From IMG/VR virus record IMGVR_UViG_3300046514_000361: a stretch of DNA of 64,000 bases, one strand, 5' to 3'. The stretch comes from an uncultured virus (IMG/VR IMGVR_UViG_3300046514_000361). Taxonomy: Duplodnaviria; Heunggongvirae; Uroviricota; Caudoviricetes. Position numbers and translations under genes: made by a program. This document shows, piece by piece, positions 2,647 through 60,911 of this stretch. The notes under the pieces are model-generated. The model was not told the origin of the DNA, did no database searches, and saw only the letters and a list, made by a program, of their open reading frames with translations. Position 1 is the first letter of the stretch; each line of letters starts with the position of its first letter.

Positions 2647-2658
2647 AGGAAACATACC

Positions 2659-5348: not shown

Positions 5349-5351
5349 GCG

Positions 5352-6999: not shown

Positions 7000-7150
7000 C
7001 GAGGCTTGAAAAACTTGTTCGTGAGTGGCGCGACGCACAGAAGGCGATTGATCGGCTGACGGTGCAGGAGCGTCGGGAAAACCGCGAGCCTCTCGACCGG
7101 CTGGTTGCTGCGCACAACGCCTTGGCCAAATACGCCGATGAGGAACTGGG

Positions 7151-8990: not shown

Positions 8991-9077
8991 AATGTTAGAG
9001 AGGGCAACGACAAGCCATGCTAAAGGAGCGACGCGTGGTGGTGACGTTCTCAACCCTCACAAAAGGAAACCAACAAA

Positions 9078-45618: not shown

Positions 45619-45813
45619 TCAGCTTTCGCCCTTACGCGCACACGCTGGGCACGCGTGCTCGTAATCGCTCCAGCCGTGCTTGTAGGCACGCCAGCCGAGG
45701 GCACGCGCTTCCGCCCATGCGGCGGCGAACTCCCGCTGATCGTGCGGCTCGTATGTCTCGGGACACTCATCGCACGAGAACGCGATCACGCCCTTGATGG
45801 TGTGCGACGTCAT
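45619..45813 (-). CDS. small Zn-finger protein
   Basis: CDEC...GW...CPAC; ATGA overlap with terL stop. Confidence 0.6.
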   Translation of the reverse strand: MTSHTIKGVIAFSCDECPETYEPHDQREFAAAWAEARALGWRAYKHGWSDYEHACPACARKGES

Positions 45814-47417
45814 GCGATCAGCGTGTCGATGTCGATCTGCTTCGTCTTGCGATCCCGCGAACGCAGACCCATCACCATCGAGAGGGCCACCGCGCCGTCG
45901 ATGCGGAAGCGGGCTTTTTCTTTGTCGAGCTTGCGGTTGCCCGCCGGGTCGAGGACGGCGACGGCGTTCGCCATATTCCAATTGAGGACTGGATTGTTCG
46001 GATGGATGAGCGACCGCTCAAGGATGCCGAGTTCGAGCGCATCAATTGCCGGAGCCATGTCCTTGAAGCCCTGGCCCCACGGCACAAGACGCAATCCATC
46101 GCCGCCCTTCTCCCCATCTTCATAGGCTTGCAGCCCAATCCGGTCGAACTCACGCAGGAGATCGTTGATGCGCCATCGGTCGTAGGCCAGCCCGCGCACC
46201 TTGTAGGTCTTTGTGAGATCGCCGACGAACATCGCGATGGTTTCCGGGTCGATGCTCTTGCCTGGGCTTGTGAGAAGATGCCCGGCCGCGACCCACTCAC
46301 GATAGCGATGCGTGCCGGTGCCGAAGTCGCGGCCTGAATGCTCGATCAGGAGATCGAGCGGCTTCCAAAAGAACGGCCGGACGCGCGCTGGTTCGTCCGC
46401 CGACGCCATGACCAGCGCGGTGAGATCGGCAACGCTGGAAAGATCGAGCGCAAGGTAGACTTCCTCGCCATCGATGAACTCGGCCTTCCCCGCGCAAGCC
46501 ATCCACTCGGCGCGCGAGATCAGCGATGCCACCGGGGCAACACGCTGGTTCAAGAACAGATTGCGCACCTTTGGTTCTTCCGCTGGCATGCGCATCGCCT
46601 TGGCGACGGCCGCGACCAAATCCTCGCGGTCGCGGAATTTTCCGAGGGCAGGGTTTGCTTTCTTCCACTGCTTCTCGTCGTCCAGTTCGCAATCTTCGTC
46701 GGCCGCGTAGAGATGGCAGACGATGGTCGGATCGATGCCCGCCAAGCCGTCATCGATCAACTTCGACAGGATGTGCTCGGGATCGTTCGACTGCGTCGAG
46801 ATGACGACGAACAGCGGCTCGGTGCGTGCGCCGAACGATGTGTCGAGTACGTCGTAGAGATCGCGGTTCTTCGCCTGCGCCAGTTCGTCGTAGATCACGA
46901 CGCTCGGCATGTAGCCGTGCTTGGTCCCGGCCTCGGCCGACACCGCGCGATAGATCGAGCCGGTGGGAAGCCCGATCATCGTCTTTGTTGACGGGACGAT
47001 CTCGATCTTGGCGCGTAGCTCAGGCTCGTATTCGACAATCTGCTTTGCGAACTTGAACACGATGCTGGCTTGGTCGCGGTCGTTCGCGGCCGAGTAGATT
47101 TCGCCGTTGGGGATCGCCTCGGGACCGACGAGGTTCGCGAGCGCGATGCACGCGATTAGAGCGGTCTTCCCATTTTTTCTCGCGACTGACAGGATCGCCC
47201 TCCGCACCACGCGCTTTCTGCGCCGGTGCGGCTCATAGATGTCGCGGATAAAATCGCGTTCCCACTCGTCAAGCTTGAACGGCTTGCCCTGGCCGATGCC
47301 GCTCGGGATCGTCAGCTTCTCGATGAAGTCGATGACGTCTTGAGCGCGATCTCGGTCGCGGGTTATGCGCCCCTTAGCCGATGAGGCCGCTGAACTTGCC
47401 GCCACCGTCGTCGCCAT
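45810..47417 (-). CDS. terL: terminase large subunit
   Basis: VARKNGKT Walker A; VVIYDE Walker B; ISTQ; LDLS; RIDGAVA. Confidence 0.95.
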   Translation of the reverse strand: MATTVAASSAASSAKGRITRDRDRAQDVIDFIEKLTIPSGIGQGKPFKLDEWERDFIRDIYEPHRRRKRVVRRAILSVARKNGKTALIACIALANLVGPEAIPNGEIYSAANDRDQASIVFKFAKQIVEYEPELRAKIEIVPSTKTMIGLPTGSIYRAVSAEAGTKHGYMPSVVIYDELAQAKNRDLYDVLDTSFGARTEPLFVVISTQSNDPEHILSKLIDDGLAGIDPTIVCHLYAADEDCELDDEKQWKKANPALGKFRDREDLVAAVAKAMRMPAEEPKVRNLFLNQRVAPVASLISRAEWMACAGKAEFIDGEEVYLALDLSSVADLTALVMASADEPARVRPFFWKPLDLLIEHSGRDFGTGTHRYREWVAAGHLLTSPGKSIDPETIAMFVGDLTKTYKVRGLAYDRWRINDLLREFDRIGLQAYEDGEKGGDGLRLVPWGQGFKDMAPAIDALELGILERSLIHPNNPVLNWNMANAVAVLDPAGNRKLDKEKARFRIDGAVALSMVMGLRSRDRKTKQIDIDTLIA

Positions 47418-47862
47418 TAGGCCCGGCAGCGATGCGCGCTCTTGCGGATGGGGTGAGTCCGAATTCGACGGCATATCTGACCATGTCTGCTGCGGCCCGT
47501 GCTGACGTCAACACGAGCGGGTTCTGCATCGGCGTGCCGTTCTTCGCTCTGAGCATCAGAGCGTTGAGCATCGGATCACGCTTCCTCATTTCGGCGAGAG
47601 CTTCCTCGGCTAAGCGCCAGCGCGCGTAAGCTTGGCAGTAGGCCGCGAGCGGATTCACATCCACGATGGTGAGGAGGTTGAGGCGGCAAAGCTGCGCCGC
47701 GATGCGGTGCCATTCCTCCCGCGCGTGGTCTTCGAGAAACGGCGGCGGGCAAGGGACGTGCTCCGGGACTGTCGGCTGCACTTCGTTCGCGGGCAGGGGT
47801 CGCTTGCCTGGGTTGCCGCGCAACAGCTTCAGATGTGTCGGAATCGGCCGACGTCCGCGCAT
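47374..47862 (-). CDS. terS: terminase small subunit, P27 family
   Basis: MRGRRPIPTHLKLLRGNPGKR...EFGLTPSARAR. Confidence 0.92.
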   Translation of the reverse strand: MRGRRPIPTHLKLLRGNPGKRPLPANEVQPTVPEHVPCPPPFLEDHAREEWHRIAAQLCRLNLLTIVDVNPLAAYCQAYARWRLAEEALAEMRKRDPMLNALMLRAKNGTPMQNPLVLTSARAAADMVRYAVEFGLTPSARARIAAGPNGDDGGGKFSGLIG

Positions 47863-48004
47863 TTCAACTCTCCTCACAGTTGTTGTTTCCGGCCGCGCAC
47901 CAAAGAGTGCGCCCGCGCTCGATTTCCGGCATTTGGAAACGCCAGCCGGACGATTGCAACAAAAAATGTAGTAATTACAGCATGATAGGGGCAAAACAAG
48001 GCAC

Positions 48005-48033
48005 TTGCAAAAGTGACATGGTGTCACTATATT
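48005..48033 (+). promoter_or_regulatory. island promoter P1 with palindromic operator
   Basis: TTGCAA-17nt-TATATT; AGTGACA TGG TGTCACT (48012-48028) spans the spacer. Confidence 0.75.
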
Positions 48034-48039
48034 TATTGA

Positions 48040-48435
48040 TGGTTGGACGGCAGTAGCCAGTCCAGTCGGTGACCTAGTGCAGTAGCCAGACGTCACCTAG
48101 GGCCTTCGGGGCCGACCACTCGCAAAGCGCCAGATACGGGCGCACCAGAGAACTCCCGACGGAACGCTGATCGCGCGACACCGGCAACGCCCACGGGCAA
48201 TGCCACCGACGTTGCTGCGGAAAAGTAGCTCCCTGTGCCCGGTGCCGCTCGCAAATGAGGACGATGGCGGGGTTCAAGTGGGGAAGCGAGGATTGATGCG
48301 AGCCGAAAACGGGGAACTGCAGAGCGCGGTGGCCATGTTGGCAATGCCAGAGAACGAAGCGCCCCACCAAAATGAAATGAGTAACATCAAACACTGCGGC
48401 GGCTTTCGAGCCGCCGCATTATTGATGCATCTCAC
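48040..48435 (+). ncRNA. candidate ~400-nt structured leader RNA
   Basis: No credible ORF; serial hairpins; GCAGTAGCCAG x2, GGCAATGCCA x2, CTCGCAAA x2. Confidence 0.45.
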
Positions 48436-48449
48436 AACAGGAGTCACCC

Positions 48450-48704
48450 ATGACACGCAATCAAGCACTGCCCTACGTTTCGTTCTGCGTTGACGACGCG
48501 TTGTCGGAACGCAAGCTCGCCGACATGCCGTCGAATGCGCGGCTTGTCGGTTGGCAGTGCGGCTTCGAACCGCTGTTCGTCGCCGTGTGGTCCTACCTCG
48601 ACGTCACGCTTGACGATGACGAGGCGGCCGAGATCGCAACCGATCTGCTGGCCGAAAAGAAATGGTTCGCAGGCGAGCCGACGTCACCCGACTACATCAT
48701 CTGA
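48450..48704 (+). CDS. hypothetical protein
   Basis: GGAGTCACC RBS. Confidence 0.7.
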   Translation: MTRNQALPYVSFCVDDALSERKLADMPSNARLVGWQCGFEPLFVAVWSYLDVTLDDDEAAEIATDLLAEKKWFAGEPTSPDYII

Positions 48705-48800
48705 GTCACATCAAAGCGCGGCCCCGAGCGGGCCGCGTCATTGATGCATCTCGCATCCGCCGCTGCAAACGGCGTCCAATCCAAAAACGGAGTCACCCCA

Positions 48801-49835
48801 ATGGCAACCGCCATCCTTCCTGAAGTCAAGCCGGTCACCATCGCGTTCGCGGCGGTGCTGCTTCAACACTACATCGGCAAGCGCAAGTCCGCGATGCTCT
48901 GGGGGCCTCCCGGCATCGGCAAGTCGGCCATCGTCTACCAGATCGCAGCGATACTCGGCTGGAAGGTGATCGACTTTCGCGCCAACATTCGTGAGCCGGT
49001 TGACGTTCGCGGCATCCCGGTGCCCGATCTGAAAACCGGCACGACGCGCTGGCTCGTTCCTGACGAGCTTCCGCGCGTTGATCGCGACGGCGAGCACGGC
49101 ATTCTCTTCCTTGACGAGATCAACACGGCCAGCCCGCAGATGATGGCCGTGCTCTTCCAACTGATCTGGGAGCGCCGGGTTGGCGACTACAAGCTCCCTG
49201 ACGGCTGGGTGATCGTCGCGGCAGGCAATCGCGTGAGCGACCGTGCCGCCGCCCAGCGGATGCCGACCGCTCTGCGCAATCGCTTCGCGCACATCTACGT
49301 CGAGGTTGACGTGAAAGCGTGGTGCGATTGGGCGACGACGGCGAACGTCGCGCCCGAGCTTGTCGCCCTCATTCGGCTTCGCGGCAAAGACGTGCTGCAC
49401 ATCATGCCGCGCGGCGACGAGAACGCGTTCCCGACGCCCCGGTCGCTGACCGATGCGGCCGAGTACGTGGACGCACCGAAGGATGTGCGGATGCAGCTTT
49501 TCGCTGGCTGCATCGGCGACGCGGCGGCGGCCGAGCTTGATGGCTTCATCGAACTCTATCGCAGCCTCGGCTCGCTGGAAGACATCGTGCGCGATCCGAA
49601 CAGCGCGCCCGTGCCGACTGAGCCGTCGAGCCGCTACGCCGTCTGCACCGGCCTCGGCCGGATGGCCGACCGCAAGAACCTGCAGAACATCGTCACGTAT
49701 GTGAAGCGCCTGAACCATCGCGAGAGCGAGCTTCTGGTGATGCACGACGCGACGTTGCGCAATCCCAAGCTCAAGGAAACGACGACCTACGGCAAGTGGG
49801 CCGTCGAGAATCAAGACCTGATCGTGCAGATGTAA
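48801..49835 (+). CDS. MoxR-like AAA+ ATPase
   Basis: LWGPPGIGKS; ILFLDEIN; IVAAGNR; ALRNRF; FPTPRS. Confidence 0.9.
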   Translation: MATAILPEVKPVTIAFAAVLLQHYIGKRKSAMLWGPPGIGKSAIVYQIAAILGWKVIDFRANIREPVDVRGIPVPDLKTGTTRWLVPDELPRVDRDGEHGILFLDEINTASPQMMAVLFQLIWERRVGDYKLPDGWVIVAAGNRVSDRAAAQRMPTALRNRFAHIYVEVDVKAWCDWATTANVAPELVALIRLRGKDVLHIMPRGDENAFPTPRSLTDAAEYVDAPKDVRMQLFAGCIGDAAAAELDGFIELYRSLGSLEDIVRDPNSAPVPTEPSSRYAVCTGLGRMADRKNLQNIVTYVKRLNHRESELLVMHDATLRNPKLKETTTYGKWAVENQDLIVQM

Positions 49836-49893
49836 TGCACGGGGCGGCGCGCGAATGCGCCGCCATTGTTTTCTGAAACGGAGTCACCCACCC

Positions 49894-50787
49894 ATGTCTA
49901 AGAAAATCGCCACGCCGCTCGCCCGCAAGGCCGTGCTGGTGTCTGTCACCATCTCGCAGTGGACGGCGCGCAAAAAAGACAAGCGCGTCACCGCCGAGAC
50001 GAACCGCCGCCATCACGCATCCGACGATGCTGGCACCTATCACAAGCTGCTGATCCAGAAAGAGCGGCTTGCGGAGATCAACGCACTCGTGTCGGCGGCG
50101 CGGGCGCTGCACTACGAACTGACGCACCCGTGGGCCGACGAAGGCCCGCGCGTTCTGCCCAACGCGTTGTTCGCCAAGTTCTCGGAGAAATTCCGCAAGC
50201 TCAAGCGCGAGTTCGACACCGCTGCGGATGACTTCGCTCGCGACTATCCGCAGTACATCGCCGAGCGCAAAGTTGCGCTCAACGGTCTGTTCAGCGAGGC
50301 CGACTATCCGCCGGTCGAGCAGATCAGGAGCAAGTTCAAGCTCGACATGACGATCCTGCCGTTTCCCGACTCGGCTGACTTCCGCGCCGACCTGGATGAC
50401 GACACGGTCGCCGACATCAAGCGCGAGTTGGAGCAAACAACGGCTCGCGTCGGCAACGATACGCTGCGCCACACTGCGGAGCGGATCACCGAAGCTGTCG
50501 GCCACATGGCCGAGAAGTTGCGGGAGTACAATTCGGGCAATCTCGGCAAAGACGGCAAGCGAAATTTCTTTCTCAACTCGCTGGTCGATAACGTGCGCGA
50601 CCTTGCCGAGTTGCTGCCCGCCTTCAACCTCACCGACGACCCGAAGCTCAACGCGATCACCAAGCGCATCTTGAAAGAGTTGTGCGCGGAAGATGCGGCC
50701 GAGCTTCGGAAGAATGACGCCGCTCGCGAGTCGGTCAAAAAGTCGGCCGACGAGATCGTGAAAGCGGTTTCGCAATTCCTGGCTTGA
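49894..50787 (+). CDS. DUF3150-like protein
   Basis: VLVSVTISQWTARKKD...; lies between AAA and VWA genes. Confidence 0.65.
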   Translation: MSKKIATPLARKAVLVSVTISQWTARKKDKRVTAETNRRHHASDDAGTYHKLLIQKERLAEINALVSAARALHYELTHPWADEGPRVLPNALFAKFSEKFRKLKREFDTAADDFARDYPQYIAERKVALNGLFSEADYPPVEQIRSKFKLDMTILPFPDSADFRADLDDDTVADIKRELEQTTARVGNDTLRHTAERITEAVGHMAEKLREYNSGNLGKDGKRNFFLNSLVDNVRDLAELLPAFNLTDDPKLNAITKRILKELCAEDAAELRKNDAARESVKKSADEIVKAVSQFLA

Positions 50788-50834
50788 TCTATCCCCCGCG
50801 CGAATGCGGGGGCTTCCACCAAACGGAGTCACCC

Positions 50835-52367
50835 ATGTCAGACCTTCTCACCACCACCGCAATGCAGCGCGTCCAGCGGGCGCGCAGCGAACTGATCATG
50901 TCGCGGCGGTTCTACGGTGTGCTCGTCTCGAACGTCGAGCCGATCATCACCCGCAAGCACGAGACTGCGGCGACGAACGGACGCCAGCACTTCTGGAATC
51001 CCGACTACATCGCCACGCTGAAACAGGACAACGTGTTGTTCGTGCAGGCGCACGAGAGCGAGCACGATGCCCGACATCACAGCACACGGCGCAACGGTCG
51101 CGACCCGGAGCGATGGAATAGGGCTTGCGACTACGGGATCAACATCGATCTCGTTGACGAAGGCTTCGTGCCGCCGCCGGGCATCTTGCTCGACGCGAGG
51201 TTTCGCGGCATGAGCGCCGAGGAAATCTACCGGTGCCTTGAGCTTGACGAGGCCGCGCAGCAACAGCAGCAACAGCCGCAGCCGCAGGAAGGCGACGGCG
51301 ATGCCGACGAAGACGAGCAGCCGCAGTCCAACGGCGACGACAGCAACGACGCTGGCGACGACCAGGGCAAGAACCAGGGCGACGACGCGAGCGACGACGC
51401 TGGCGACGACCAGGGCGAGGGCGGTTCGGGCGACGCCGACGATGGTGACGCTGATCAGGACGCAGGTTCTGGCGGCGATGCCGACGACGGCGAAGGCCAG
51501 GGCGGCGACGCCGAGGGCGAAGGCTCTGACGCTGAAGGCGGCAACGGTGCTGGCAACGGCAGCGGCGACGCCGAGGGCGACGACCAGGGCGAAGGCTCTG
51601 GCGCGGGCGACGCGGACGGCGAGGGCGCTGGCAGCAAGCCGGTCGTCGGCGACGTCGGCGGCTGCGGCGAGGTGCTCGACGCGAGCGACGAGCCGGGTGA
51701 TCTCTCCGAGCAAGATGCCAAGTGGGAGCGGATCACGCGGCAAGCGGCATCGCTGGCGAAGGCTATCGGGCAGTGCCCCGGCCACATCACGCGCGAGATC
51801 GAACGGTCGAATAATCCGACCCAAGACTGGCGCGAGGTGCTGCGGTCCTATTTCGATCAAGGTGCGCTTCGCACCGAGACCTGGAATAGGCCGAACCGTC
51901 GCCACATCGGCCGGGGCGTAGTCCTGCCCGGCTCGCAGCGCGACGGCGTGAACAAGGCGTGCTTTCTGATCGATACCAGCGGATCGATCTACAGCGACCC
52001 GGTGGCGTTGCAGCTTGTTCGCGACGAGGCGCAGGCCGCGCTTGACGACCGTATTGTTGACGAGGCCGTCGTGATCTACGGCGACACGGCGGTCACGCGT
52101 GTTGACACCTACCGCACGGGCGACGAGATCGAGTTCGACCCGCGCGGCGGTGGCGGCACCGACATGAAGCCGCTGTTTGAGTACGTCGCGGAAGAGCACG
52201 ACGACGCATCGCTGATCGTCTGCTTCACCGACCTTGAGATCGGCGACCCCGGCGTCGAGCCGCATTGCCCGACGCTGTTCGCCGTGACCGGCTATCCGCA
52301 GCGGGTGCGCGAGCTTATCGCGAACGCCCCGTGGGGTGCGCCGTGCATCGACGTCGGTGCGCACTGA
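50835..52367 (+). CDS. DUF2201-type metallopeptidase-like + acidic linker + VWA protein
   Basis: TAATNG; HESEH; WNRACDYGIN; IDTSGS; GGGGTD; FTD. Confidence 0.85.
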   Translation: MSDLLTTTAMQRVQRARSELIMSRRFYGVLVSNVEPIITRKHETAATNGRQHFWNPDYIATLKQDNVLFVQAHESEHDARHHSTRRNGRDPERWNRACDYGINIDLVDEGFVPPPGILLDARFRGMSAEEIYRCLELDEAAQQQQQQPQPQEGDGDADEDEQPQSNGDDSNDAGDDQGKNQGDDASDDAGDDQGEGGSGDADDGDADQDAGSGGDADDGEGQGGDAEGEGSDAEGGNGAGNGSGDAEGDDQGEGSGAGDADGEGAGSKPVVGDVGGCGEVLDASDEPGDLSEQDAKWERITRQAASLAKAIGQCPGHITREIERSNNPTQDWREVLRSYFDQGALRTETWNRPNRRHIGRGVVLPGSQRDGVNKACFLIDTSGSIYSDPVALQLVRDEAQAALDDRIVDEAVVIYGDTAVTRVDTYRTGDEIEFDPRGGGGTDMKPLFEYVAEEHDDASLIVCFTDLEIGDPGVEPHCPTLFAVTGYPQRVRELIANAPWGAPCIDVGAH

Positions 52368-52434
52368 AAACTGCCGGGCGGCCCGCGTGGCCGCCCGGCC
52401 CTTTGCAAGCCCACTCTCACAAACGGAGTCACCA

Positions 52435-52671
52435 ATGAGCTACTGCCCTTGGACAAAAAATTTACACACCACGCACGAGGCCGGGAGACGGAAAGCCACA
52501 AAACGGACGCACAAGCCGAAGCCCGCGCAGCCATCGAGGTTCTCGACGCATAGCCACTTCAAGCAAGAGATCGGACTCGGATCGCGCCCAGACGTTTGTG
52601 CAAATTGCCGAATGCCGTTCGAAGACCACTACAACGGCGCGTGTCCGAAAGACGAAAACGAGAAAAGTTAG
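52435..52671 (+). CDS. hypothetical protein
   Basis: GGAGTCACC RBS; CANC. Confidence 0.55.
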   Translation: MSYCPWTKNLHTTHEAGRRKATKRTHKPKPAQPSRFSTHSHFKQEIGLGSRPDVCANCRMPFEDHYNGACPKDENEKS

Positions 52672-52766
52672 AGTCGTATCAAAGCGCCGCCCCATGCGGG
52701 CGGCGTCGTTGATGCATCTCGCATCACGCCGGTGCAAAACGGCGAACACATGAAACGGAGTCACCC

Positions 52767-53285
52767 ATGTCACCGAAGCTTGAAGCCATTGCCGCCTACG
52801 ATGCCGCGCTGAAGCGACCGGACAAGGCCGATTGGCGCGCCGTCGCGAAGCTCTTGCGCGACGTTCTCCCGCAACCGCGCGTCGGCAAAACGATGCCGCG
52901 ATCCGATGGCCACACCGAAATCGCCGACTACGTCACGAAAGGCAAATCGAACCGACGCGGCCCGTCGATGGTCGTCACGTTCGAAGATGACACGCAGGTT
53001 CGCATGTCGTTTTCGTCGCAGGAAGGCAAGCCGATCAACGCGGGGCTGGGCCTGCGCGTCGTGTGCTCGGGCTATCGCACGAAGCGGGCTTTCCCGATCA
53101 GCGATCTGAAGGCCATCGCCAAGCTTGGCGTGCCGTCGATCCGCAGCGCGCATGCCGAGCGGGACGGCGACGTCGTCGCCACGTTCGACCCTATCGAGTG
53201 CAACGGTTACACCGCGCCCTATCGGCAAGGCATGCCGTATGAGAAGTGGCGTTCGCGTCGCGACCGGTTGCACGTTGCAGCTTAA
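52767..53285 (+). CDS. hypothetical protein
   Basis: GGAGTCACCC RBS. Confidence 0.7.
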   Translation: MSPKLEAIAAYDAALKRPDKADWRAVAKLLRDVLPQPRVGKTMPRSDGHTEIADYVTKGKSNRRGPSMVVTFEDDTQVRMSFSSQEGKPINAGLGLRVVCSGYRTKRAFPISDLKAIAKLGVPSIRSAHAERDGDVVATFDPIECNGYTAPYRQGMPYEKWRSRRDRLHVAA

Positions 53286-53299
53286 AAGGAATCGCCCCA

Positions 53300-53581
53300 A
53301 TGACAACGAGACTAGAGCAACTCAAGGAAGCGTTCGCGCGCAATCTGGCGCGGACGCTCGCCGACGATCCGAGCTACTACGCCTGGAAAGCCGAAGAGCT
53401 TCCGGACGTCACGGCCCGCATGCTTGCGGCCATCGACCGTGCGGGCGGGCTTGGCGGCATCAACATCCAGTCGCGCACGTTCACGCGCACCGCCCGCGAG
53501 TTCGGTATCAAGAACACGTACAAGGCATGGGCCGCGTGGCTCGCCGCCGATGTGAAAGAGGAGTCGGACAATGGACTGTGA
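53300..53581 (+). CDS. hypothetical protein
   Basis: Variant RBS GGAATCGCC; GIKNTYKA motif. Confidence 0.65.
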   Translation: MTTRLEQLKEAFARNLARTLADDPSYYAWKAEELPDVTARMLAAIDRAGGLGGINIQSRTFTRTAREFGIKNTYKAWAAWLAADVKEESDNGL

Positions 53582-53744
53582 CGCCCACACCAAAGACGAC
53601 GGCTCGTGGTGGGAGCACGATGCGCGCGGCATTCCGCTTTGCCGCGTTTGCGCCAAGTGCAAGCGCCGCAAGCTTGCGCACTACCGGCCCGAGGTGCTGT
53701 CCGATCCCAACTACGTGGCGGACGAACCGATTGATGAAGACTGA
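53571..53744 (+). CDS. 57-aa Zn-binding phage protein
   Basis: Hand translation ...SWWEHDARGIPLCRVCAKC...YRPEVL; GAGGAG SD. Confidence 0.65.
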   Translation: MDCDAHTKDDGSWWEHDARGIPLCRVCAKCKRRKLAHYRPEVLSDPNYVADEPIDED

Positions 53745-53783
53745 AAAAGAGAAAGCCGGGGACCGTGAGGCCGCCCGGCTTTC
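53744..53783 (-). terminator. intrinsic terminator of the sRNA
   Basis: Minus strand gaaagccggg...cccggctttc followed by tcttttt. Confidence 0.75.
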
Positions 53784-53841
53784 CCGTTGGAATGCGGATC
53801 GCGTGCAAACGCGACCTGCGTGGAGTCACCCTTCCAACAGT
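53744..53841 (-). ncRNA. candidate antisense sRNA carrying seed GGGUGACUCC
   Basis: Own promoter and terminator; seed (53822-53831) in a 12-nt bulge between two stems. Confidence 0.75.
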
Positions 53842-53845
53842 GCGG

Positions 53846-53874
53846 AGGTTAGGGCCACGGTCCTGCACCGTCAA
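53846..53874 (-). promoter_or_regulatory. sigma70 promoter of the sRNA
   Basis: TTGACG (53874-53869), 17-nt spacer, TAACCT (53851-53846). Confidence 0.75.
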
Positions 53875-53880
53875 TTGGCG

Positions 53881-53889
53881 TTATCCACA
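53881..53889 (+). promoter_or_regulatory. perfect DnaA box
   Basis: TTATCCACA, 6 nt upstream of the sRNA -35. Confidence 0.45.
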
Positions 53890-53947
53890 GGTGGGTGCTG
53901 CGAGAGATCAGCCAACTTTTGGCACACTCTCGGCCCGCCGCACGCTT

Positions 53948-53978
53948 TTGACCCGAGGGTGACAATTTGTCATACACA
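53948..53978 (+). promoter_or_regulatory. island promoter P2 with second operator
   Basis: TTGACC -35; GTGACA ATT TGTCAT (53959-53973); -10 weak. Confidence 0.55.
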
Positions 53979-54007
53979 CGCCAATCAACCGAAACCAGGA
54001 GTCACCG

Positions 54008-54235
54008 ATGACCACCACGACACAGAATCCAAACTGCAGCGGCAACCATTGCCGCTCCACCACCGGCGAGGTTCGCGTCTACCCGCTCGGCGGCGGCGGC
54101 AACTTGATCCTCTGCATCGCTTGCTGGGCGCATGAGAACCGCTACCGGTTCGAGCGCGGGCGCGAGACGCGCGAGCCTGCGAACTGGCCCCAGGTCGATT
54201 GGGCCACAGCGGAAGTCTACGGAGGTGCGTCATGA
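54008..54235 (+). CDS. hypothetical Cys-containing protein
   Basis: GGAGTCACC RBS. Confidence 0.65.
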   Translation: MTTTTQNPNCSGNHCRSTTGEVRVYPLGGGGNLILCIACWAHENRYRFERGRETREPANWPQVDWATAEVYGGAS

Positions 54236-54603
54236 TCACGGCGAAGACGCAACCATTCTGTCATTGGTGCGGCAAACCGCTGCGCAAGCACGCCGTGCGA
54301 CGCCACCCGCCGGGTCAGTTGGGGTTTAACGATTCAACTCTGCGCACTCTCGCGGATTGTCAGCGTCGCGAGAACCAGAAAGTGATCAGCGTGCAGTACC
54401 GCTGGGACTACGACGACGGCGACAAAATCCCGAGCACGAAGCGCATCCACAGCTACGCTGTTTGGGACGGCGAGACGTATCAGGCGGTGCTCGAATTCTT
54501 CTGCACCAACGACTGCGCCATGTCGTTAGGCCACGCGGCAGCGAAGCATCACAACATCGTTGGCAAGGCTTTCAACGAGGCCACGCGAAAGGCAAAGCCA
54601 TGA
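54232..54603 (+). CDS. Zn-finger-like hypothetical protein
   Basis: CHWCGK...FCTNDCA; coupled. Confidence 0.6.
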   Translation: MITAKTQPFCHWCGKPLRKHAVRRHPPGQLGFNDSTLRTLADCQRRENQKVISVQYRWDYDDGDKIPSTKRIHSYAVWDGETYQAVLEFFCTNDCAMSLGHAAAKHHNIVGKAFNEATRKAKP

Positions 54604-54803
54604 CCGACCGTGAAGTTCTCGCCATGCTGCGCGGTTCGCCGAGCGGCACCACCGAAGCGATGGCGGCGTTGCACGGCATCGACCGCGCCCAGCTTGATCG
54701 GCTTGTTGCCGCAGGCCGGGCACGCGTCCAGATGCAGGCGCTCCACAAGCCACGCATCGTCAAGTTCGCCACGTTCTTTTTCAACTCTCAACAGGAAACA
54801 TGA
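54600..54803 (+). CDS. small hypothetical protein
   Basis: ATGA coupling. Confidence 0.5.
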   Translation: MTDREVLAMLRGSPSGTTEAMAALHGIDRAQLDRLVAAGRARVQMQALHKPRIVKFATFFFNSQQET

Positions 54804-55063
54804 CCATGACACTCACACGTCTCGCCATCGTGCTGGCGTTGTTCGCGCCAGCCGATGCACTCGCACAGTCCAGCACTTTCTACGACGCGTCCGGCCGCGT
54901 GTCGGGTCGCTCGGCCACCGACAGCGGCGGCGCGACCACGTTCTACGATCCGAGCGGGCGCGTCACGAACCGCGCATCTATCGATAGCCAGGGCACCACG
55001 ACGATCTATGACGCAAGCGGGCGCAAGGTCGGAACTGATCCAACGCAGGAGAAACGACGATGA
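54800..55063 (+). CDS. small secreted protein with three T(F/I)YDxSGR repeats
   Basis: Signal peptide ending ADALA; repeats in translation. Confidence 0.7.
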   Translation: MTMTLTRLAIVLALFAPADALAQSSTFYDASGRVSGRSATDSGGATTFYDPSGRVTNRASIDSQGTTTIYDASGRKVGTDPTQEKRR

Positions 55064-55272
55064 CGATGCACGAGTGGATCACGGGCAGGGGCAGGCGCGG
55101 CCTGCTTTTGCCGTTGAGCTTGCCGGGCATGCTGTGCATCGGCTGCGTCATCCTGCCCCCGCTCCTGGTGCTCACCATCGTCGGTCCCGGTCCCGATGAC
55201 GAACGGCCGCCTGATCCGTGGCGCAAGCGCCAGCGCATGCGGGCCGTGCGGCGGAAGGATGTTCGACCATGA
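55060..55272 (+). CDS. small membrane protein
   Basis: Hydrophobic segment; coupled. Confidence 0.45.
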   Translation: MTMHEWITGRGRRGLLLPLSLPGMLCIGCVILPPLLVLTIVGPGPDDERPPDPWRKRQRMRAVRRKDVRP

Positions 55273-55451
55273 CCTGGGAAACCCTGAACGCTGTCCGCAC
55301 CGCGACCCGGTGCGAGTTCTCTGCCGCGCTCGCTGCGCGGCACGTCTTTGTGCGACTGCTAAGCGGGCGTTGGGGCCGATGCCTCGACGCGCCGCCGCTC
55401 AACGCCGTGCATGTGCGCGGCAACGTCTACCATCTCGCGGAGGGCCGGTGA
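55269..55451 (+). CDS. hypothetical protein
   Basis: ATGA coupling. Confidence 0.4.
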   Translation: MTWETLNAVRTATRCEFSAALAARHVFVRLLSGRWGRCLDAPPLNAVHVRGNVYHLAEGR

Positions 55452-55452
55452 C

Positions 55453-55590
55453 ATGCACCTCATATTGCTCGGCCTCTTCTTGATCTTCATCGTGTGCCTG
55501 ATGCGGTCATGCAAGACATCACCGCCAGTGGTGCCGGTGCCAGAACCGGACTCGCAATTCACCATCATCGTTATCAACATCAACGACTGA
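55453..55590 (+). CDS. 45-aa membrane peptide
   Basis: Hand translation MHLILLGLFLIFIVCLMRSC... Confidence 0.4.
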   Translation: MHLILLGLFLIFIVCLMRSCKTSPPVVPVPEPDSQFTIIVININD

Positions 55591-55599
55591 GGAGACACG

Positions 55600-55806
55600 A
55601 TGAAGCACACCGCGCAAACCAACGCCGACTTCGTCCGCGCGGCGCGTGAGCGGCTCGGCATCACGCAGGCCGAGTTCGGCGAGCGGCTCGGCGTATCTAA
55701 GCGTACCGTCATTCGCTGGGAGCAAGGCAGCGTGCTCAAGCGGCGCGACCGCGTCGCCATCACGCTGCTGATCGAGCAACCGGTCGTATCGCAGAGGATC
55801 ACATGA
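55600..55806 (+). CDS. small XRE/Cro-like HTH regulator
   Basis: RERLGITQAEFGERLGVSKRTVIRWEQG; GAGGAG SD. Confidence 0.88.
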   Translation: MKHTAQTNADFVRAARERLGITQAEFGERLGVSKRTVIRWEQGSVLKRRDRVAITLLIEQPVVSQRIT

Positions 55807-56606
55807 TCACGCTCAACGACGACGGCGTGTCCGTCAAAGGCTGCAGGATCATCTACGCACCGAAAGGGCAGGCGGGGGAATACGCCCCGCTTGCCACCAA
55901 TCCGTATCGCGGCTGCGGCCACGGCTGCGCGTACTGCTACGTGCCGCTGGTGACGCATCAGGATCGCAAAGAGTTCGACGCGGGCGCGATCCCGCGTCGC
56001 GACTACCTCACCTCGCTGTGGGCCGACGCCGCCAAGTACAAGGCGCTCGGCTGTCGCGAACAGGTCATGCTGTCGTTCACCACCGACCCGTACAATCCGA
56101 GCGACATTTCGCTGACGCGGCCGACGCTCGACACGCTGATCGCGCACGGGCTGGCGATCTGCACCCTGACCAAGGGCGGCACGCGGGCGCTGCGCGACGT
56201 CGAGCTATTCCGCCCGGAGCGCGATGCGTTTGCATCCACGCTCACCTCGCTTGACGACCGCTTCTCGCAGAAGTGGGAGCGCAACGCGGCGCTGCCTGCC
56301 GACCGGATCGCGGCGCTGCGCACCTTCCACGAGCGCGGCATCTTCACCTGGGTTTCGCTTGAGCCGACGCTCGACGTCGATGCGTCGATTGCGATTGTCG
56401 AAGCAACCCACGACTTCATTGATCTCTTCAAGGTCGGCCGGGTGAACTACCTGCCGATGACAAAGACGACCGACTGGCGCGACTACACGGTGCGCATGCT
56501 CGACGTGCTCAATCGTGTCGGTGCGCGCCACTACATCAAGCGCGACCTGCAAGGCTACCTGCCGCCGAACTATCCCAACGCACTGCGCGTCCCGCAGCAT
56601 CACTGA
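55803..56606 (+). CDS. radical SAM protein (SplB/COG1533-like)
   Basis: NPYRGCGHGCAYCY; TDPY; LTK; SLEP. Confidence 0.85.
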   Translation: MITLNDDGVSVKGCRIIYAPKGQAGEYAPLATNPYRGCGHGCAYCYVPLVTHQDRKEFDAGAIPRRDYLTSLWADAAKYKALGCREQVMLSFTTDPYNPSDISLTRPTLDTLIAHGLAICTLTKGGTRALRDVELFRPERDAFASTLTSLDDRFSQKWERNAALPADRIAALRTFHERGIFTWVSLEPTLDVDASIAIVEATHDFIDLFKVGRVNYLPMTKTTDWRDYTVRMLDVLNRVGARHYIKRDLQGYLPPNYPNALRVPQHH

Positions 56607-56619
56607 AAGGAGTCACCTC

Positions 56620-56842
56620 ATGACCGAATCCGCCGCTCGGTCTGACAACCGAGCGGGCTTGGTTTCAATGCGGCCCGCTGCTTGGCATCGTGCTGATAGA
56701 CAACGTGGACCGTGACTGGTCATTCGTCGCGTTGAGCCGAACGCTGCCCGAAACGCAGTATCGCGCCTTCGACGTCGGCACCAGCTACGCGTCACAAGAG
56801 GAAGCCACCGAGGCGTTGGCGAAAGCACTGGAGTCACCCTGA
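56620..56842 (+). pseudogene. frameshifted small gene
   Basis: ATG frame stops after 31 aa; the +1 frame is open 56624-56842 and its TGA overlaps the next ATG. Confidence 0.6.
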
Positions 56843-57060
56843 TGGCCTACGTTCTCTGTACCAGCCACTGCATCGATTGCGGACAATTGTTCTCGTACAA
56901 TCCGGTTCGCGTGCCGAGCATTCCGATCAATGGCAACCGCGAGCCGATCTGCCGCGAGTGCGTCGAGCGGGTTAACCCGCAGCGCATCGCCAACGGCCTT
57001 GAACCCATCGTGCCCGCGCCAGACGCCTACGACGCGTGCGACGAATCCGAACTCGACTGA
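56842..57060 (+). CDS. small Zn-ribbon protein
   Basis: CIDC..FSYNPVRVPS..REPICREC. Confidence 0.7.
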   Translation: MAYVLCTSHCIDCGQLFSYNPVRVPSIPINGNREPICRECVERVNPQRIANGLEPIVPAPDAYDACDESELD

Positions 57061-57082
57061 AATCCAACGAAGGAGTCACCCA

Positions 57083-57271
57083 ATGATCGACGTGAGCGAA
57101 ATGCCCGAAGACGCCGTTCTGGCTACGATCCGCTGGCTCGAAGCTCGCGAAAAAGAAGCAATCGAGATGATGCCGAAAAGCGAAGGAGGGGAGATAGGCG
57201 CAACTTGCCGTCGCGCTCGGATCGAACTGACGACGCTCTATGATCTTCATCAAGACGACTACGAAGGGTAA
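57083..57271 (+). CDS. hypothetical protein
   Basis: GGAGTCACCC RBS. Confidence 0.55.
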   Translation: MIDVSEMPEDAVLATIRWLEAREKEAIEMMPKSEGGEIGATCRRARIELTTLYDLHQDDYEG

Positions 57272-57275
57272 AAAC

Positions 57276-57584
57276 ATGAGACGAACAATCCTAGCAGCGT
57301 TGTGTCTAACGGCGCTGGCCCCGCTTCCGGCCAGTGCTGACGGGCGCAGCGTGATGTTTCTCAAGGGTGTCGCCTATGGCATCGCACAGGAATGTCCTGC
57401 CATGCAGGTCGATGGCGACGCTGTCCGTAAGATCAAACACGTTGAAGGCAACCGGTCTGGCAACTCCCACGACTTCAAGGACGGCGTCACCTACGCATCA
57501 CAACTGCTCAAGAGGAAGGAGCAAAGCTGCGATACGATCTGCAGCATTCGTCCCGGCACCTGCTACTTCGTGAAAGAGCAGTGA
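57276..57584 (+). CDS. small secreted Cys-containing protein
   Basis: Signal peptide MRRTILAALCLTALAPLPASA. Confidence 0.65.
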   Translation: MRRTILAALCLTALAPLPASADGRSVMFLKGVAYGIAQECPAMQVDGDAVRKIKHVEGNRSGNSHDFKDGVTYASQLLKRKEQSCDTICSIRPGTCYFVKEQ

Positions 57585-57623
57585 CCATCTACCAACCAGC
57601 CCCGAAGGATAGGAGTCACCACC

Positions 57624-57842
57624 ATGAAAAAGCAAACCGAAATCTATTCGATCTTCAGCCAGATCGACGCCATCGTCGCGCAAGCGATGGTGGACGAGGG
57701 CAAGGCCAACAAAATCTCGGCCGACCTGATCCCGCCCACCGCCCTGTTCAACGACGCGGGCGACCGCGCGCATTTCGCCATCGCGATCCACACGGCGTTC
57801 TTGCCAGAGTACGAAGAGCGGGTGCGCACGCTGCGCGCCTAA
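57624..57842 (+). CDS. hypothetical protein
   Basis: GGAGTCACC RBS. Confidence 0.6.
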   Translation: MKKQTEIYSIFSQIDAIVAQAMVDEGKANKISADLIPPTALFNDAGDRAHFAIAIHTAFLPEYEERVRTLRA

Positions 57843-57864
57843 ACCCATGAAGGAGTCACCGACC

Positions 57865-58206
57865 ATGAAGACCATACTCGCAACCATCGTGCTCGCCGCT
57901 GCGCTCGCCGCAAGCGGACAGAACGCCAGCGCCGATTCCGACGATGCCATCAAAGTGACGGTGGGACGCACCTACAGCAACACGGGCAACTATCAGAACA
58001 CGACATTCACGCTCATCAATGGGCCGCGCCCTTACAAAAGTATCAAGGTTCAATGCGCGCTGCTCGACGCCAACAAACGGCCGCTTGCGGTCGATTTTAC
58101 CACACTGGAAAATGTCGGCGCTGGTGCCACCGTCTATGGCGAAGTGATGATCACGGTCAAAGACGCAGGCGCAAGCGCCAACTGTCGCGTCGAAGACGCA
58201 CGCTAA
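57865..58206 (+). CDS. secreted beta-sandwich (FxLYD-like) protein
   Basis: Signal peptide; VQCALLD...LENVGAG. Confidence 0.65.
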   Translation: MKTILATIVLAAALAASGQNASADSDDAIKVTVGRTYSNTGNYQNTTFTLINGPRPYKSIKVQCALLDANKRPLAVDFTTLENVGAGATVYGEVMITVKDAGASANCRVEDAR

Positions 58207-58223
58207 AGGAGTCACCCACCACC

Positions 58224-58631
58224 ATGAACACGATCAAGTCTCTGGCGGCCACCATCCTGGCCGTCGCTACTCTAGCGACCGGGCAAGCTCGCGCGGCCGA
58301 CTACTTCACCACGAGCGCATTCCTTGCTCACTGCGACAGCCCTGTCGATTATCATCAGGTCGCTTGCAGCTTCTACGCGGCGGCCATCGCCGATGCCTAT
58401 CGCGCGCTTGCGCTCGCGACGTATGACCCAACCTCGCAGTACGTCAGCTTCGCTGGCATTTGCATGCCATTGCAGATCGGTGCCAACGAGGTAATCGCCT
58501 TCACGCGCGAAGAGGCGGGCGGTGCGCGCGGTTACTCGTCGCTAAAGCTTGAGGCCCCGGCGTCGGTCACGGCGTTCGCCGGGCTGCGCAAGGCTTACCC
58601 CTGCCCGAGACAGCCGAGGCAGGGGTCGTGA
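58224..58631 (+). CDS. Rap1a/Tai-like periplasmic immunity protein
   Basis: Signal peptide; LAHC...C..Y...IAD...ICMP...PAS....GLRKAYPC. Confidence 0.7.
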   Translation: MNTIKSLAATILAVATLATGQARAADYFTTSAFLAHCDSPVDYHQVACSFYAAAIADAYRALALATYDPTSQYVSFAGICMPLQIGANEVIAFTREEAGGARGYSSLKLEAPASVTAFAGLRKAYPCPRQPRQGS

Positions 58632-58641
58632 CCAGAGGATC

Positions 58642-58672
58642 GGGGCGGCCTTCGCGGGCCGCCCCTTTTTTT
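58642..58672 (+). terminator. rho-independent terminator
   Basis: ggggcggcc ttcgcg ggccgcccc + T7. Confidence 0.85.
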
Positions 58673-58778
58673 GTGCCCAGTGCCGAGAGATGACCCAACT
58701 CTTGGCCATGGTGCCAGCGGCTTGCCGTTGACCATTGGCTGATCGATGGATAAAACCATCTCAACCAAGAAACGGGGG

Positions 58779-59093
58779 ATGACCAAAATGAGAGTGTTGC
58801 GGGCGCTTCCGCTGGCCTTACTGGCGACCATGGCGGGCTGCGCGACGGCACCGCCGCCGCCGATGCACTGGGTGAAAGCGGGCGCTACCGAAGAGATGTT
58901 CCTGAAGGAACGCTATGCCTGCCTTCAACAGGCACAGCAGCCGCAGACCGGCAGCTACGTGAACGGCTACGGCGGGTCCAGCTACGGAACGATGATCACC
59001 AATCAGAAACTGTTCTTCTCGTGCATGGAAGCGGCAGGCTACAAGTGGGAGCTTGTCACGCCCGTGCCGGTGGCCGCAGCCGCCAAACCCTGA
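58779..59093 (+). CDS. lipoprotein
   Basis: Lipobox MAGC; W.K.GAT...C...CM...GY. Confidence 0.75.
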   Translation: MTKMRVLRALPLALLATMAGCATAPPPPMHWVKAGATEEMFLKERYACLQQAQQPQTGSYVNGYGGSSYGTMITNQKLFFSCMEAAGYKWELVTPVPVAAAAKP

Positions 59094-59233
59094 AGAGTGC
59101 GCGGCCCGCCCCGGCGACTTGCGGAGAGCCTAGAGGAGGTCAACAACCGCGAGCGGGGACGGTCCAGTGCTCTCACCGCTGGTGGTTTTTTCCACTTCGG
59201 TGTGCTACGATCCGATCACAAAGGATTCGATGC

Positions 59234-59482
59234 ATGACCACGGCCGAATCGCATGTCGAACTCGATGTTCGCGAGAAGATCGCCCACATCGATCAGATGC
59301 TCGCCGACCACGAGCGCATCTACGCCGACACAAAGCGCATCAATGCGGATCATGACCGCAAGCGGCAGGAAATCCGCTACGCGCCGTGGGTGCTCATTTT
59401 GCCGATTGCGGTTAGTTTACTGACCGCTGGGGCAGCACTGTTTGCGGCCGGTGCCGCGTTCATGAAGTTTGTGCAGCCATGA
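59234..59482 (+). CDS. coiled-coil + C-terminal TM protein
   Basis: AAGGA SD; TGcTACGAT extended -10 upstream. Confidence 0.6.
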   Translation: MTTAESHVELDVREKIAHIDQMLADHERIYADTKRINADHDRKRQEIRYAPWVLILPIAVSLLTAGAALFAAGAAFMKFVQP

Positions 59483-59793
59483 ACCCGCGCTTCGACACCC
59501 TCGCCATCGCCCGTGATCTGCGGCAGCACGGCTTCACGCAGGATCAGGCCGAAGCCGTCGCCGACGCGGTGAACCAAGCGGCGGGCCTGCCTGATCTGAC
59601 GGTGCTCGCGACCAAGGATGATCTCGCGGCGCTAGCGACCAAGGACGAGTTGCGCGCGGCCATCGCCGACGTGCGCAGCGTCATCACCGGAAGCCAAAAT
59701 GACATCCTGAAATGGATCATCGGCTTGGTCGTGTCATCGTGGCTCGTCAACGTCGGCACCATGCTCGCGCTGGTCAGGCTGACGGGGCACTAG
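59479..59793 (+). CDS. DUF1640/CCDC90-like coiled-coil membrane protein
   Basis: FDTL..ARDL...GFT..QAEA; LATKDD repeats; ILKWIIG TM. Confidence 0.8.
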   Translation: MNPRFDTLAIARDLRQHGFTQDQAEAVADAVNQAAGLPDLTVLATKDDLAALATKDELRAAIADVRSVITGSQNDILKWIIGLVVSSWLVNVGTMLALVRLTGH

Positions 59794-59794
59794 A

Positions 59795-60007
59795 ATGACG
59801 TATGGAACGGCTCTTGTCCTCGGCGTGGCGGCCCTCACCCTCTTCGGACTCGGAATGCTGTTCGCCAACTACTTCATGGTGACGCGTCCCGCCCAGCAGG
59901 CCGTCTGCGCTACCCACGGGATGGAATATCTCAGCATGGGAGCGAACGCGCACAACTGGGTCTGCAGGGATCGCGACGGGCGGCTCTATCGGTTCGAGGA
60001 AAAATGA
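59795..60007 (+). CDS. small membrane-anchored protein
   Basis: N-terminal TM, two Cys. Confidence 0.55.
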   Translation: MTYGTALVLGVAALTLFGLGMLFANYFMVTRPAQQAVCATHGMEYLSMGANAHNWVCRDRDGRLYRFEEK

Positions 60008-60219
60008 AAATGGCAATCATGATGGGCAAGCTGTACGCGGCACTGCGCGCGGCGAATGCATCCGATGATCTTGCGCGCGAAGCTGCCGAGGAAGTGGCGG
60101 CTTTCGAAAACAGGATCGCCGAGATTCGCGCTGATCTTTTGCTGGTGAAGTGGATGATCGGCTTCAACCTTGCGATGACCGTTGCGATCTTATGGCGCGT
60201 GTTCGTGCAGCAGCACTAG
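60004..60219 (+). CDS. small coiled-coil + TM protein (CCDC90-like)
   Basis: LYAALRAA...AAEEVA...LVKWMIG. Confidence 0.65.
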   Translation: MKMAIMMGKLYAALRAANASDDLAREAAEEVAAFENRIAEIRADLLLVKWMIGFNLAMTVAILWRVFVQQH

Positions 60220-60899
60220 CGCCCGCGCAGGACCACGCCGACGTAGACCACCGCCGCGCCCTTGCCCTTGCCAGCCTGCCAGCGCGTCTCAATCTCGCAC
60301 CCCATCCGCCGCGCCACCTCGTTGATCGCCCGCGTGATGATCTCGTCGTGCCAGCGGATCGCGCCGGTGACGTGGCGCGGCATCCCGACAAGATGCGCCA
60401 AAGCGTAGGAGAGGTTGCCCCGCTTCACGTCGAGGCCCGAGCCGTCGGTCAGCACGAGGCCGATGCGCTCGCCCGGTGCCGCCTTGCGCCGCGCCGCCAG
60501 GATCGTCGCTTGCTCCCACGGCGACCCGTGTGCGTCGAGATCGAAGACCGCGAACGCGCCGAGATCGATGCAGCGCATCACCCGGCGATTGTCGGCGACG
60601 TAGGCCACGCGTTCGTCGCGATGCCAGTCGAGGTCGCAGCCGACGCACGCGCGAGCCTCGTGCCAGACGTTGCGATACATCTCGCCCGCACCCGCGAACG
60701 CATCGAACACCGCGACGTCGCGCCCGAGCGCGTCGAGCACGTTGCGCCTGATCTCGACCTTGGCGGGCTTGCTCGCCTGCGCGTTCTTGATCTTGGCGGC
60801 CCGCGTGCTGGCGAGAAACATCAGGCGGTCGGGGACAAACACGAGCGGCGGGCGAGTGCCGACATCGAGAAAGACAATCCGATAGCCGCCCCTGCGCAT
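60216..60899 (-). CDS. SAM-dependent methyltransferase-like protein (start may be 60821)
   Basis: VFDAFAGAG motif I; FDLDAHGSPW. Confidence 0.65.
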   Translation of the reverse strand: MRRGGYRIVFLDVGTRPPLVFVPDRLMFLASTRAAKIKNAQASKPAKVEIRRNVLDALGRDVAVFDAFAGAGEMYRNVWHEARACVGCDLDWHRDERVAYVADNRRVMRCIDLGAFAVFDLDAHGSPWEQATILAARRKAAPGERIGLVLTDGSGLDVKRGNLSYALAHLVGMPRHVTGAIRWHDEIITRAINEVARRMGCEIETRWQAGKGKGAAVVYVGVVLRGR

Positions 60900-60911
60900 C
60901 TGCGCATTGTC

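Follow-up and report, generated by a model that had tools for sequence, protein, structure and literature searches.

A nine-base start-associated motif and its candidate intergenic linker in a non-structural operon of an uncultured contractile-tailed phage

The window analyzed here is a stretch of 64,000 nucleotides from the uncultured virus IMGVR_UViG_3300046514_000361 in IMG/VR. It has a GC content of 58 to 68%, and scans of its proteins against PHROGs showed that it encodes a tailed phage with a contractile tail. The structural genes, including those for the tube and baseplate, lie at 12 to 48 kb on the minus strand. Behind them, on the plus strand, lies an operon of non-structural genes, which comprises a MoxR-like AAA ATPase, a DUF3150 protein, a DUF2201 VWA/metallopeptidase protein, a small HTH protein, a radical SAM protein, and many small open reading frames (ORFs), several with signal-peptide-like N termini. 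Throughout this operon, the nine-base sequence GGAGTCACC recurs a few nucleotides ahead of start codons. This motif, and the intergenic linker of which it appears to form the end, are described below.

An exact count on both strands retrieved 14 copies of GGAGTCACC, all on the plus strand between positions 48440 and 58216, and none elsewhere in the 64 kb. The number expected by chance has a mean of 0.38 and a maximum of 3, and none of 100 dinucleotide-preserving shuffles reached 14. An ATG is found 1 to 7 nt 3' of the motif in 13 of the 14 copies (gaps of 1, 3, 5, 1, 1, 1, 1, 2, 3, 2, 3, 4, and 7 nt), which places GGAG, the Shine-Dalgarno (SD) core of the motif, 6 to 12 nt ahead of the start codon. 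The core is followed in all 14 copies by the fixed tail TCACC, which presumably cannot pair with the anti-SD sequence. Versions of GGAGTCACC with up to two mismatches are not enriched in the window (180 sites versus 187 expected), and it is therefore the exact 9-mer that is conserved. The first six copies share a longer identity of 14 to 17 nt (AAAC, the motif, C or A, and ATG). Among the last six, the identity is limited to the nine bases and the flanks are unrelated, which speaks against recent copying as its source. These copies and their distances to ATG agree with those that an earlier note on this DNA, made by eye, had reported, and the degenerate copy GGAATCGCC that it had pointed out is present as well (Table 1).

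The same note had held that most genes of the block without the motif are translationally coupled to an upstream gene and that the HTH gene carries an ordinary SD, and both statements are borne out. The motif-less genes either overlap the stop codon of the upstream gene (starts at 54232, 54600, 54800, 55060, and 55803) or start 4 nt behind it (57276), and the HTH gene at 55600 is preceded by GGAGACACG in place of the motif. The SDs of the other phage genes are varied, and the plus-strand genes past the terminator of the operon (58746 to 60219) lack the motif. A scan with a sigma-70 consensus, which may not be that of the host, revealed one plus-strand promoter-like site at 48005 to 48033 and none in the linkers. 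The motif is absent from this site and, the orphan copy at 53822 apart, from positions outside gene starts.

Relatives of the phage were gathered with an ATPase alignment search of IMG/VR, which retrieved 73 loci. Identical fragments of the phage exist in this database (G001, 39 kb), as does the relative G002, which has 69,726 bases, is 96% complete according to CheckV, and shows DNA identities of 66 to 81% across the alignable blocks. No close cultured phage was found by megablast, and the best matches by tblastn were at most 46% identical. Among 185,579 species genomes, no prophage relative exceeded 42% ATPase identity, and the search thus pointed to no host.

About ten related IMG/VR contigs share a composite linker that ends in the motif. 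In these relatives the full linker is approximately 45 to 50 nt long and consists of the stop codon, a few C-rich bases, a GC hairpin, an A/C-rich spacer, GGAGTC(ACC), and 1 to 8 nt before the ATG. Forty-three distinct cassettes from 11 loci were chosen for a loop-type hairpin before GGAGT, and are thus paired by construction. Their stems measure 4 to 7 bp (5 bp in 27 of them) and comprise 17 different inner stems, with G-C/C-G swaps at each position of the stem. In 20 of the 43 the loop reads CTGCAAA, and in most others it is CTTGCA-like; the spacer spans 7 to 21 nt with base frequencies of 0.47 for A, 0.30 for C, 0.07 for G, and 0.16 for T; and GGAGTC is present in 41 cassettes and GGAGTT in 2.

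Pairing was also counted without this selection, at every plus-strand CTGCAAA or CTTGCAA in the 11 family loci, according to whether or not GGAGT occurs within 28 nt. Loop words followed by GGAGT have five of five flanking pairs in 21 of 29 cases and four of five in another 4. Those not followed by GGAGT have five of five in 1 of 25 cases, and those on the opposite strand in 2 of 14. These counts were made by a script anchored on the loop, as whole-cassette MAFFT alignments put the stems out of register. Furthermore, the orthologous ATPase-DUF3150 spacer, compared over eight lineages, has 12 invariant columns, of which 9 belong to GGAGTC and the ATG, the sole invariant runs.

The hairpin loop and the motif were also considered as parts of a promoter, a reading that was rejected because loop and GGAGTC are separated by a variable stretch of 7 to 21 nt. 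Several linkers contain a second small hairpin, of the TGTTCA-N3-TGAACA type, just 5' of the CTGCAAA-type hairpin, which results in a two- or three-hairpin spacer. Hairpins of this second type are found in L103 (9590 to 9606, 13818 to 13834, 14985 to 15001, and 15890 to 15906) and before the DUF3150 gene in L098, L099, and L100.

The motif changes with the phylogeny of the phages that carry it. Exact copies of GGAGTCACC in relatives always lie on the coding strand: G002 has seven, on a single strand and at syntenic gene starts, L100 has five, L095 and L099 have three each, L098 has two, and L097 and L115 have one each. L099 and L100 additionally present GGAGTCAC followed by a different base. 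In L102, L103, and L112, whose ATPase identity is 61 to 68%, only GGAGTC is kept and the tail is variable. A sister clade lacks GGAGTC entirely; its contig L107 instead has seven copies of GGAGCAAGC located 1 to 3 nt before start codons, with none on the other strand; two further copies are found in L109 and four in L317, an unrelated-looking 6-kb contig. A scan of IMG/VR for a 14-mer of the sister motif gave mostly single chance matches and at least one further contig with four copies (L317). A neighbor-joining tree of the ATPases, which carries no support values, groups the motif types into nested clades.

In L107 the copies of GGAGCAAGC(C) span 2436 to 9390, and the copies of the sister clade (L107, L109, and L317), all 1 to 3 nt ahead of start codons, also stand behind GC hairpins and A/C-rich spacers. 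In L104, ACGACA directly precedes the ATG of all three core genes (921, 2050, and 3007), a possible further start-adjacent motif.

Among 401 sampled bacterial genomes of one class, which do not necessarily include the true host, GGAGTCACCNATG occurs at least once in 90 and never more than four times in a genome, and the motif is not a common bacterial ribosome-binding site (RBS) among the genomes searched. Together with the varied SDs elsewhere in the phage and the different motif of the sister clade, this upholds the earlier view that the motif is not a generic RBS. A literature search for the 9-mer gave, among the matches listed, only unrelated primers.

The linker also precedes genes that have no homologue in the other compared loci, and it coincides with sites of gene gain and loss. 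In G002, an extra gene of 65 aa stands between two near-identical linkers, and L097 has a single linker at this place. The operon of the window opens with a gene (48450 to 48704) that lies between two copies of a long hairpin plus motif, of which L095 carries one. In L100, an additional gene of 183 aa is set between linkers at a place where L099 has a single linker. Gene indels between close relatives are thus bracketed by linker copies in three of three cases examined, a result that would be predicted from exchange at linkers without being a strong independent test of it, and one that agrees with the cassette shuffling suggested in the earlier note.

The feature is under selection. We consider it reasonably probable that GGAGTCACC is the ribosome-binding end of a standard intergenic linker used in one non-structural operon. 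The best reading is that of an RNA-level start-associated linker resembling the start-associated sequences (SAS) of cluster K mycobacteriophages, on shuffling cassettes similar to the PeSL cassettes of T4-like phages. According to this reading, the phage would place the linker before nearly every operon gene that needs an independent translation start, and the linker would act on the mRNA. There it would fold into a hairpin whose stem covaries freely and whose loop is fixed (CUGCAAA or CUUGCA), followed by an almost G-free single-stranded leader of 7 to 21 nt that, together with the tail, may keep the start site open. The hairpin would separate neighboring cistrons, and it probably also shields RNA ends or marks them. 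Selection appears to act on the bases 3' of GGAG in their own right, and these bases differ between clades, which makes them a putative class mark common to the genes, whose reader would be either the ribosome, in a manner particular to the host, or some other factor. Since one and the same linker stands beside unrelated genes, it would also serve as a joint for gene gain and loss.

Several observations weigh against this reading. The canonical hairpin is found at only 3 of the 14 copies in the window, and the six copies from 56609 on follow the preceding gene after gaps of 2 to 14 nt, which are too short for any hairpin; motif and hairpin are therefore separable modules. No gene lies behind the orphan copy at 53822. 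Start regions with the motif are more open in silico than those of other genes (mean unpaired probability of 0.53 versus 0.45; one-sided P of 0.005; n of 13 versus 74) and than those of genes with an SD (0.53 versus 0.48; P of 0.049), a gain in accessibility that is small and based on crude start calls. The T and C after GGAG are fixed across the clade, which a reading based on the ribosome alone leaves unexplained. Indels bounded by linkers are partly expected, because linkers mark most gene borders. Finally, the phage DNA comes from soil and rhizosphere metagenomes, for which all 24 listed runs are of DNA and none of RNA.

The fixed bases beyond GGAG would also be accounted for if they were a class tag for a dedicated RNA-binding protein, of the phage or the host, that switches the gene set post-transcriptionally, an alternative that we regard as a tentative possibility. 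Bases that are presumably of no use to the anti-SD are constant within each genome but not between clades, RNA hairpins bound by proteins typically combine a covarying stem with a constant loop, and the motif is restricted to one operon. In phage T4, RegB cuts GGAG in the ribosome sites of early genes, and RegA represses such sites. Set against this, no RNA-binding domain was found in the window proteins scanned (65 ORFs versus Pfam and 71 versus PHROGs), and the first gene of the operon, encoding 84 aa, has no usable match in the Atlas. A more specific form of the same idea, which we hold to be somewhat unlikely, is that clade-private RBS extensions (GGAG+TCACC, GGAG+TC, and GGAG+CAAGC) and the fixed-loop hairpin are read by a co-evolving phage-encoded factor. 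Swappable accessory genes would then be translated, silenced, or processed as one post-transcriptional regulon, which a new gene would join by landing between two linkers. It is unlikely that the motif is simply a strong ordinary RBS, whose extra identical bases are functionless and kept by common descent and by gene conversion between linkers. Linker copies do recombine or duplicate, and the long identity among the first six copies would fit such a history; the last six, with their unrelated flanks, do not, and nine bases are a very short tract for gene conversion. Moreover, GGAGTC persists in the loci with 61 to 68% ATPase identity, while stems, spacers, and tails vary.

A reading at the level of DNA, counted here against the RNA-level linker, would make the motif a one-orientation site for a phage DNA-binding protein that overlaps the RBS. 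The stoperators of cluster A mycobacteriophages, as described by Pope et al. (PMC3203893), are 13-bp sites that act on transcription; the small HTH protein of the operon is conserved in four of eight compared loci (the window, G002, L099, and L112), and clade-specific motifs would suit co-evolving repressors. A second HTH protein is encoded in the window at 2659 to 3042. This is nonetheless quite improbable, since GGAG is kept at SD distance from a start codon in every copy (the orphan has only the GTG), the motif is accompanied by the RNA-type features of covarying stems and a G-poor single-stranded leader, and no further copies of it are seen away from gene starts or at the promoter-like site. 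The reading, drawn from the earlier note, that the motif is the target of an antisense small RNA (sRNA), or a mark for methylation by CcrM at GANTC, fares worst and appears highly improbable. No GGTGACTCC, the reverse complement, exists in the window or in G002, and the site that would otherwise make the best duplex with it (−25.2 kcal/mol, at 27945 on the minus strand) depends on wobble pairs, lies in the structural-gene region, and is not kept in G002. A phage-encoded antisense RNA is therefore unsupported by these scans of phage DNA, and a partner might instead be an sRNA of the host. As to methylation, GAGTC is indeed contained in every copy, and GANTC is mildly under-represented in the window (157 sites versus 223 expected from base composition). 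The site is not, however, specific to the motif, which supplies 14 of the 157 sites and leaves 143 outside it; the sister motif GGAGCAAGC lacks GANTC, and the scans of the window proteins gave no methyltransferase domain.

The positions of the motif copies, hairpins, and genes are collected in Table 1.

Table 1. Positions of the motif copies, associated RNA-type elements, and genes in the window
Feature	Coordinates	Strand	Details
Motif copy 1	48440..48448	+	ATG 48450; 84-aa gene (48450-48704), first gene of the operon
Motif copy 2	48789..48797	+	ATG 48801; AAA ATPase
Motif copy 3	49880..49888	+	ATG 49894; DUF3150
Motif copy 4	50825..50833	+	ATG 50835; DUF2201 VWA-like protein
Motif copy 5	52425..52433	+	ATG 52435; 78 aa
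Motif copy 6	52757..52765	+	ATG 52767; 172 aa
Motif copy 7, orphan	53822..53830	+	Canonical hairpin upstream; no ATG; GTG 9 nt on
Motif copy 8	53998..54006	+	ATG 54008; 75 aa
Motif copy 9	56609..56617	+	ATG 56620; 31-codon ORF only
Motif copy 10	56830..56838	+	ATG 56842; 72 aa
Motif copy 11	57072..57080	+	ATG 57083; 62 aa
Motif copy 12	57612..57620	+	ATG 57624; 72 aa
Motif copy 13	57852..57860	+	ATG 57865; 113 aa, signal-peptide-like N terminus
Motif copy 14	58208..58216	+	ATG 58224; 135 aa, signal-peptide-like N terminus
Degenerate copy GGAATCGCC	53288..53296	+	3 nt before ATG 53300
Variant GGAGTCGGA, family core GGAGTC	53560..53568	+	ATG 53571
Canonical hairpin, 5-bp stem, loop CTGCAAA	48758..48774	+	14 nt before motif copy 2
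Canonical hairpin, loop GTGCAAAA	52727..52744	+	Before motif copy 6
Canonical hairpin, loop TGCAAA	53799..53814	+	Before orphan copy 7
GC hairpin with T-rich tail, terminator-like	49843..49874	+	Between ATPase and DUF3150 genes
GC hairpin	50793..50812	+	Before motif copy 4
Long interrupted hairpin, copy 1	48378..48434	+	Fold z −5.7
Long interrupted hairpin, copy 2	48702..48753	+	Fold z −3.3; 92% identical to G002
Long interrupted hairpin, copy 3	52671..52720	+	Fold z −3.4; 96% identical to G002
Transcription unit with all 14 motif copies	48440..58675	+	Non-structural genes
MoxR-like AAA ATPase	48801-49835	+	
DUF3150 protein	49894-50787	+	
DUF2201 VWA/metallopeptidase protein	50835-52367	+	
Small HTH protein	55600-55806	+	
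Radical SAM protein	55803-56606	+	
Strong intrinsic terminator	58642..58675	+	10-bp stem, 9 GC pairs, T7 run; immediately behind the last gene with the motif, end of the island
Terminase	45810-47474	-	PHROG
Capsid-protease fusion	38947-42342	-	PHROG; 1131 aa, prohead-protease-like and major-capsid-like regions within a single ORF
Tail sheath	31518-33092	-	PHROG
Fibre/baseplate protein	12178-16416	-	PHROG; 1412 aa

The terminator-like element between the ATPase and DUF3150 genes is a shortened version of the three-hairpin linker that the relatives have at this junction. No non-coding DNA is better conserved between the window and G002 than the long interrupted hairpin (92 to 96% identity). The outer stem of this hairpin, CATCAA/TTGATG, is conserved, its GC-rich inner stem varies with compensatory changes, and the arm word ATTGATGCATCTC has 3 matches versus 0.13 expected. 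This hairpin could be an RNA processing site or a terminator.

The orphan motif copy lies in a region of about 260 nt (53745 to 54007) that has no clear coding signal in any frame and begins with a complete linker; the region is possibly the remnant of a gene, or else a small RNA. Orphan linkers are likewise present in L099 (17487), L103 (16722), and L112 (14912), and directly behind the one in L099 lies an odd tRNA-like gene of 97 nt (17521 to 17617, minus strand), for which ARAGORN left the anticodon undetermined. The short ORF behind copy 9 (56620 to 56715) contains a terminator-like hairpin with a 9-bp stem (56633 to 56656), and the copy, ORF, and hairpin may together constitute a leader peptide or attenuator arrangement.

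Toward the 3' end of the operon, small proteins with signal-peptide-like N termini are encoded at 54800 to 55063, 57276 to 57584, 57865 to 58206, and 58224 to 58631. One of the small proteins in this part has RHS repeats, and another weakly matches a Rap1a-like immunity protein (E of 4.6e-4, below the Pfam cut-off). These proteins look like accessory, moron-like cargo. An Rfam scan of 47000 to 61000 gave a single chance-level match (E of 0.86), a tRNA scan of the window operon gave nothing, and a literature search on DUF3150 retrieved one unrelated preprint only.

Several known systems share features with this linker. The sites of T4 RegB are similar in that the ribosome sites of early genes carry GGAG as a post-transcriptional mark of the whole class. 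RegB sites are not known to have a fixed 5-nt tail, and no RegB-like nuclease was found in the scans of the window proteins.

The SAS of cluster K mycobacteriophages, to which the earlier note had likened the motif, are described in nearly identical terms by Pope et al. (2011, PMC3203893), and the likeness extends to position, orientation, gene class, and sequence design. In that account, as here, a short asymmetric repeat with 11 to 19 copies per genome stands in one orientation a few nucleotides before mostly ATG starts, is confined to the non-structural genes, and precedes families that are unrelated to one another, and an SD core is joined to conserved bases beyond the reach of 16S rRNA pairing (presumably so in the present motif). 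About half of the cluster K copies are described with an upstream inverted repeat. The sequences themselves differ: GGAGTCACC has the GGAG core alone in common with the 13-mer GGGATAGGAGCCC and fails to match the 13-bp consensus within two mismatches. In addition, the present phage is contractile-tailed and comes from soil metagenomes, and the motif itself changes between sister clades, unlike the SAS of cluster K as reported. The upstream elements are also distinct. The extended SAS (ESAS) are presented by Pope et al. (PMC3203893) as imperfect 17-bp inverted repeats with conserved arms that do not covary and show no compensatory changes, for which DNA binding is favored, whereas the hairpins described here have covarying stems of 4 to 7 bp and a fixed loop.

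The PeSL cassettes of T4-like phages, according to their description (PMC4122927), are also small composite regulatory sequences with a stem-loop that flank variable small ORFs, and the gene indels that distinguish close relatives have their exchange points in them, as seen here in all three events. A PeSL combines an early promoter with a terminator stem-loop, whereas the scan of the linkers showed no promoter and the conserved part of the linker is the ribosome site. A further parallel is the 26-bp repeat of the Citrobacter myophage Mordin, which precedes eight hypothetical genes and likewise has an A/C-rich leader, GGAG, and a fixed tail. The Mordin authors, in a genome announcement on a phage of a Gram-negative host, themselves compared it to SAS (PMC4611695). 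It has a different sequence, and the announcement's account of the repeat (PMC4611695) includes neither a hairpin nor a comparison of clades or an analysis of indels.

For practical use, the linker may offer a compact and portable expression joint for polycistronic constructs. SAS have been known since 2011 with a function that is unproven, and a 2025 survey still lists their role as unverified (PMC12699233). The present case appears to be the same phenomenon outside the actinobacteriophages. It adds three handles to those of the cluster K system, namely, an RNA-type hairpin that covaries and is linked to the motif, variants of the motif that track the phylogeny of the phages, and gene indels bounded by linkers; if a reader exists, the clade-specific motifs would constitute a natural swap experiment.

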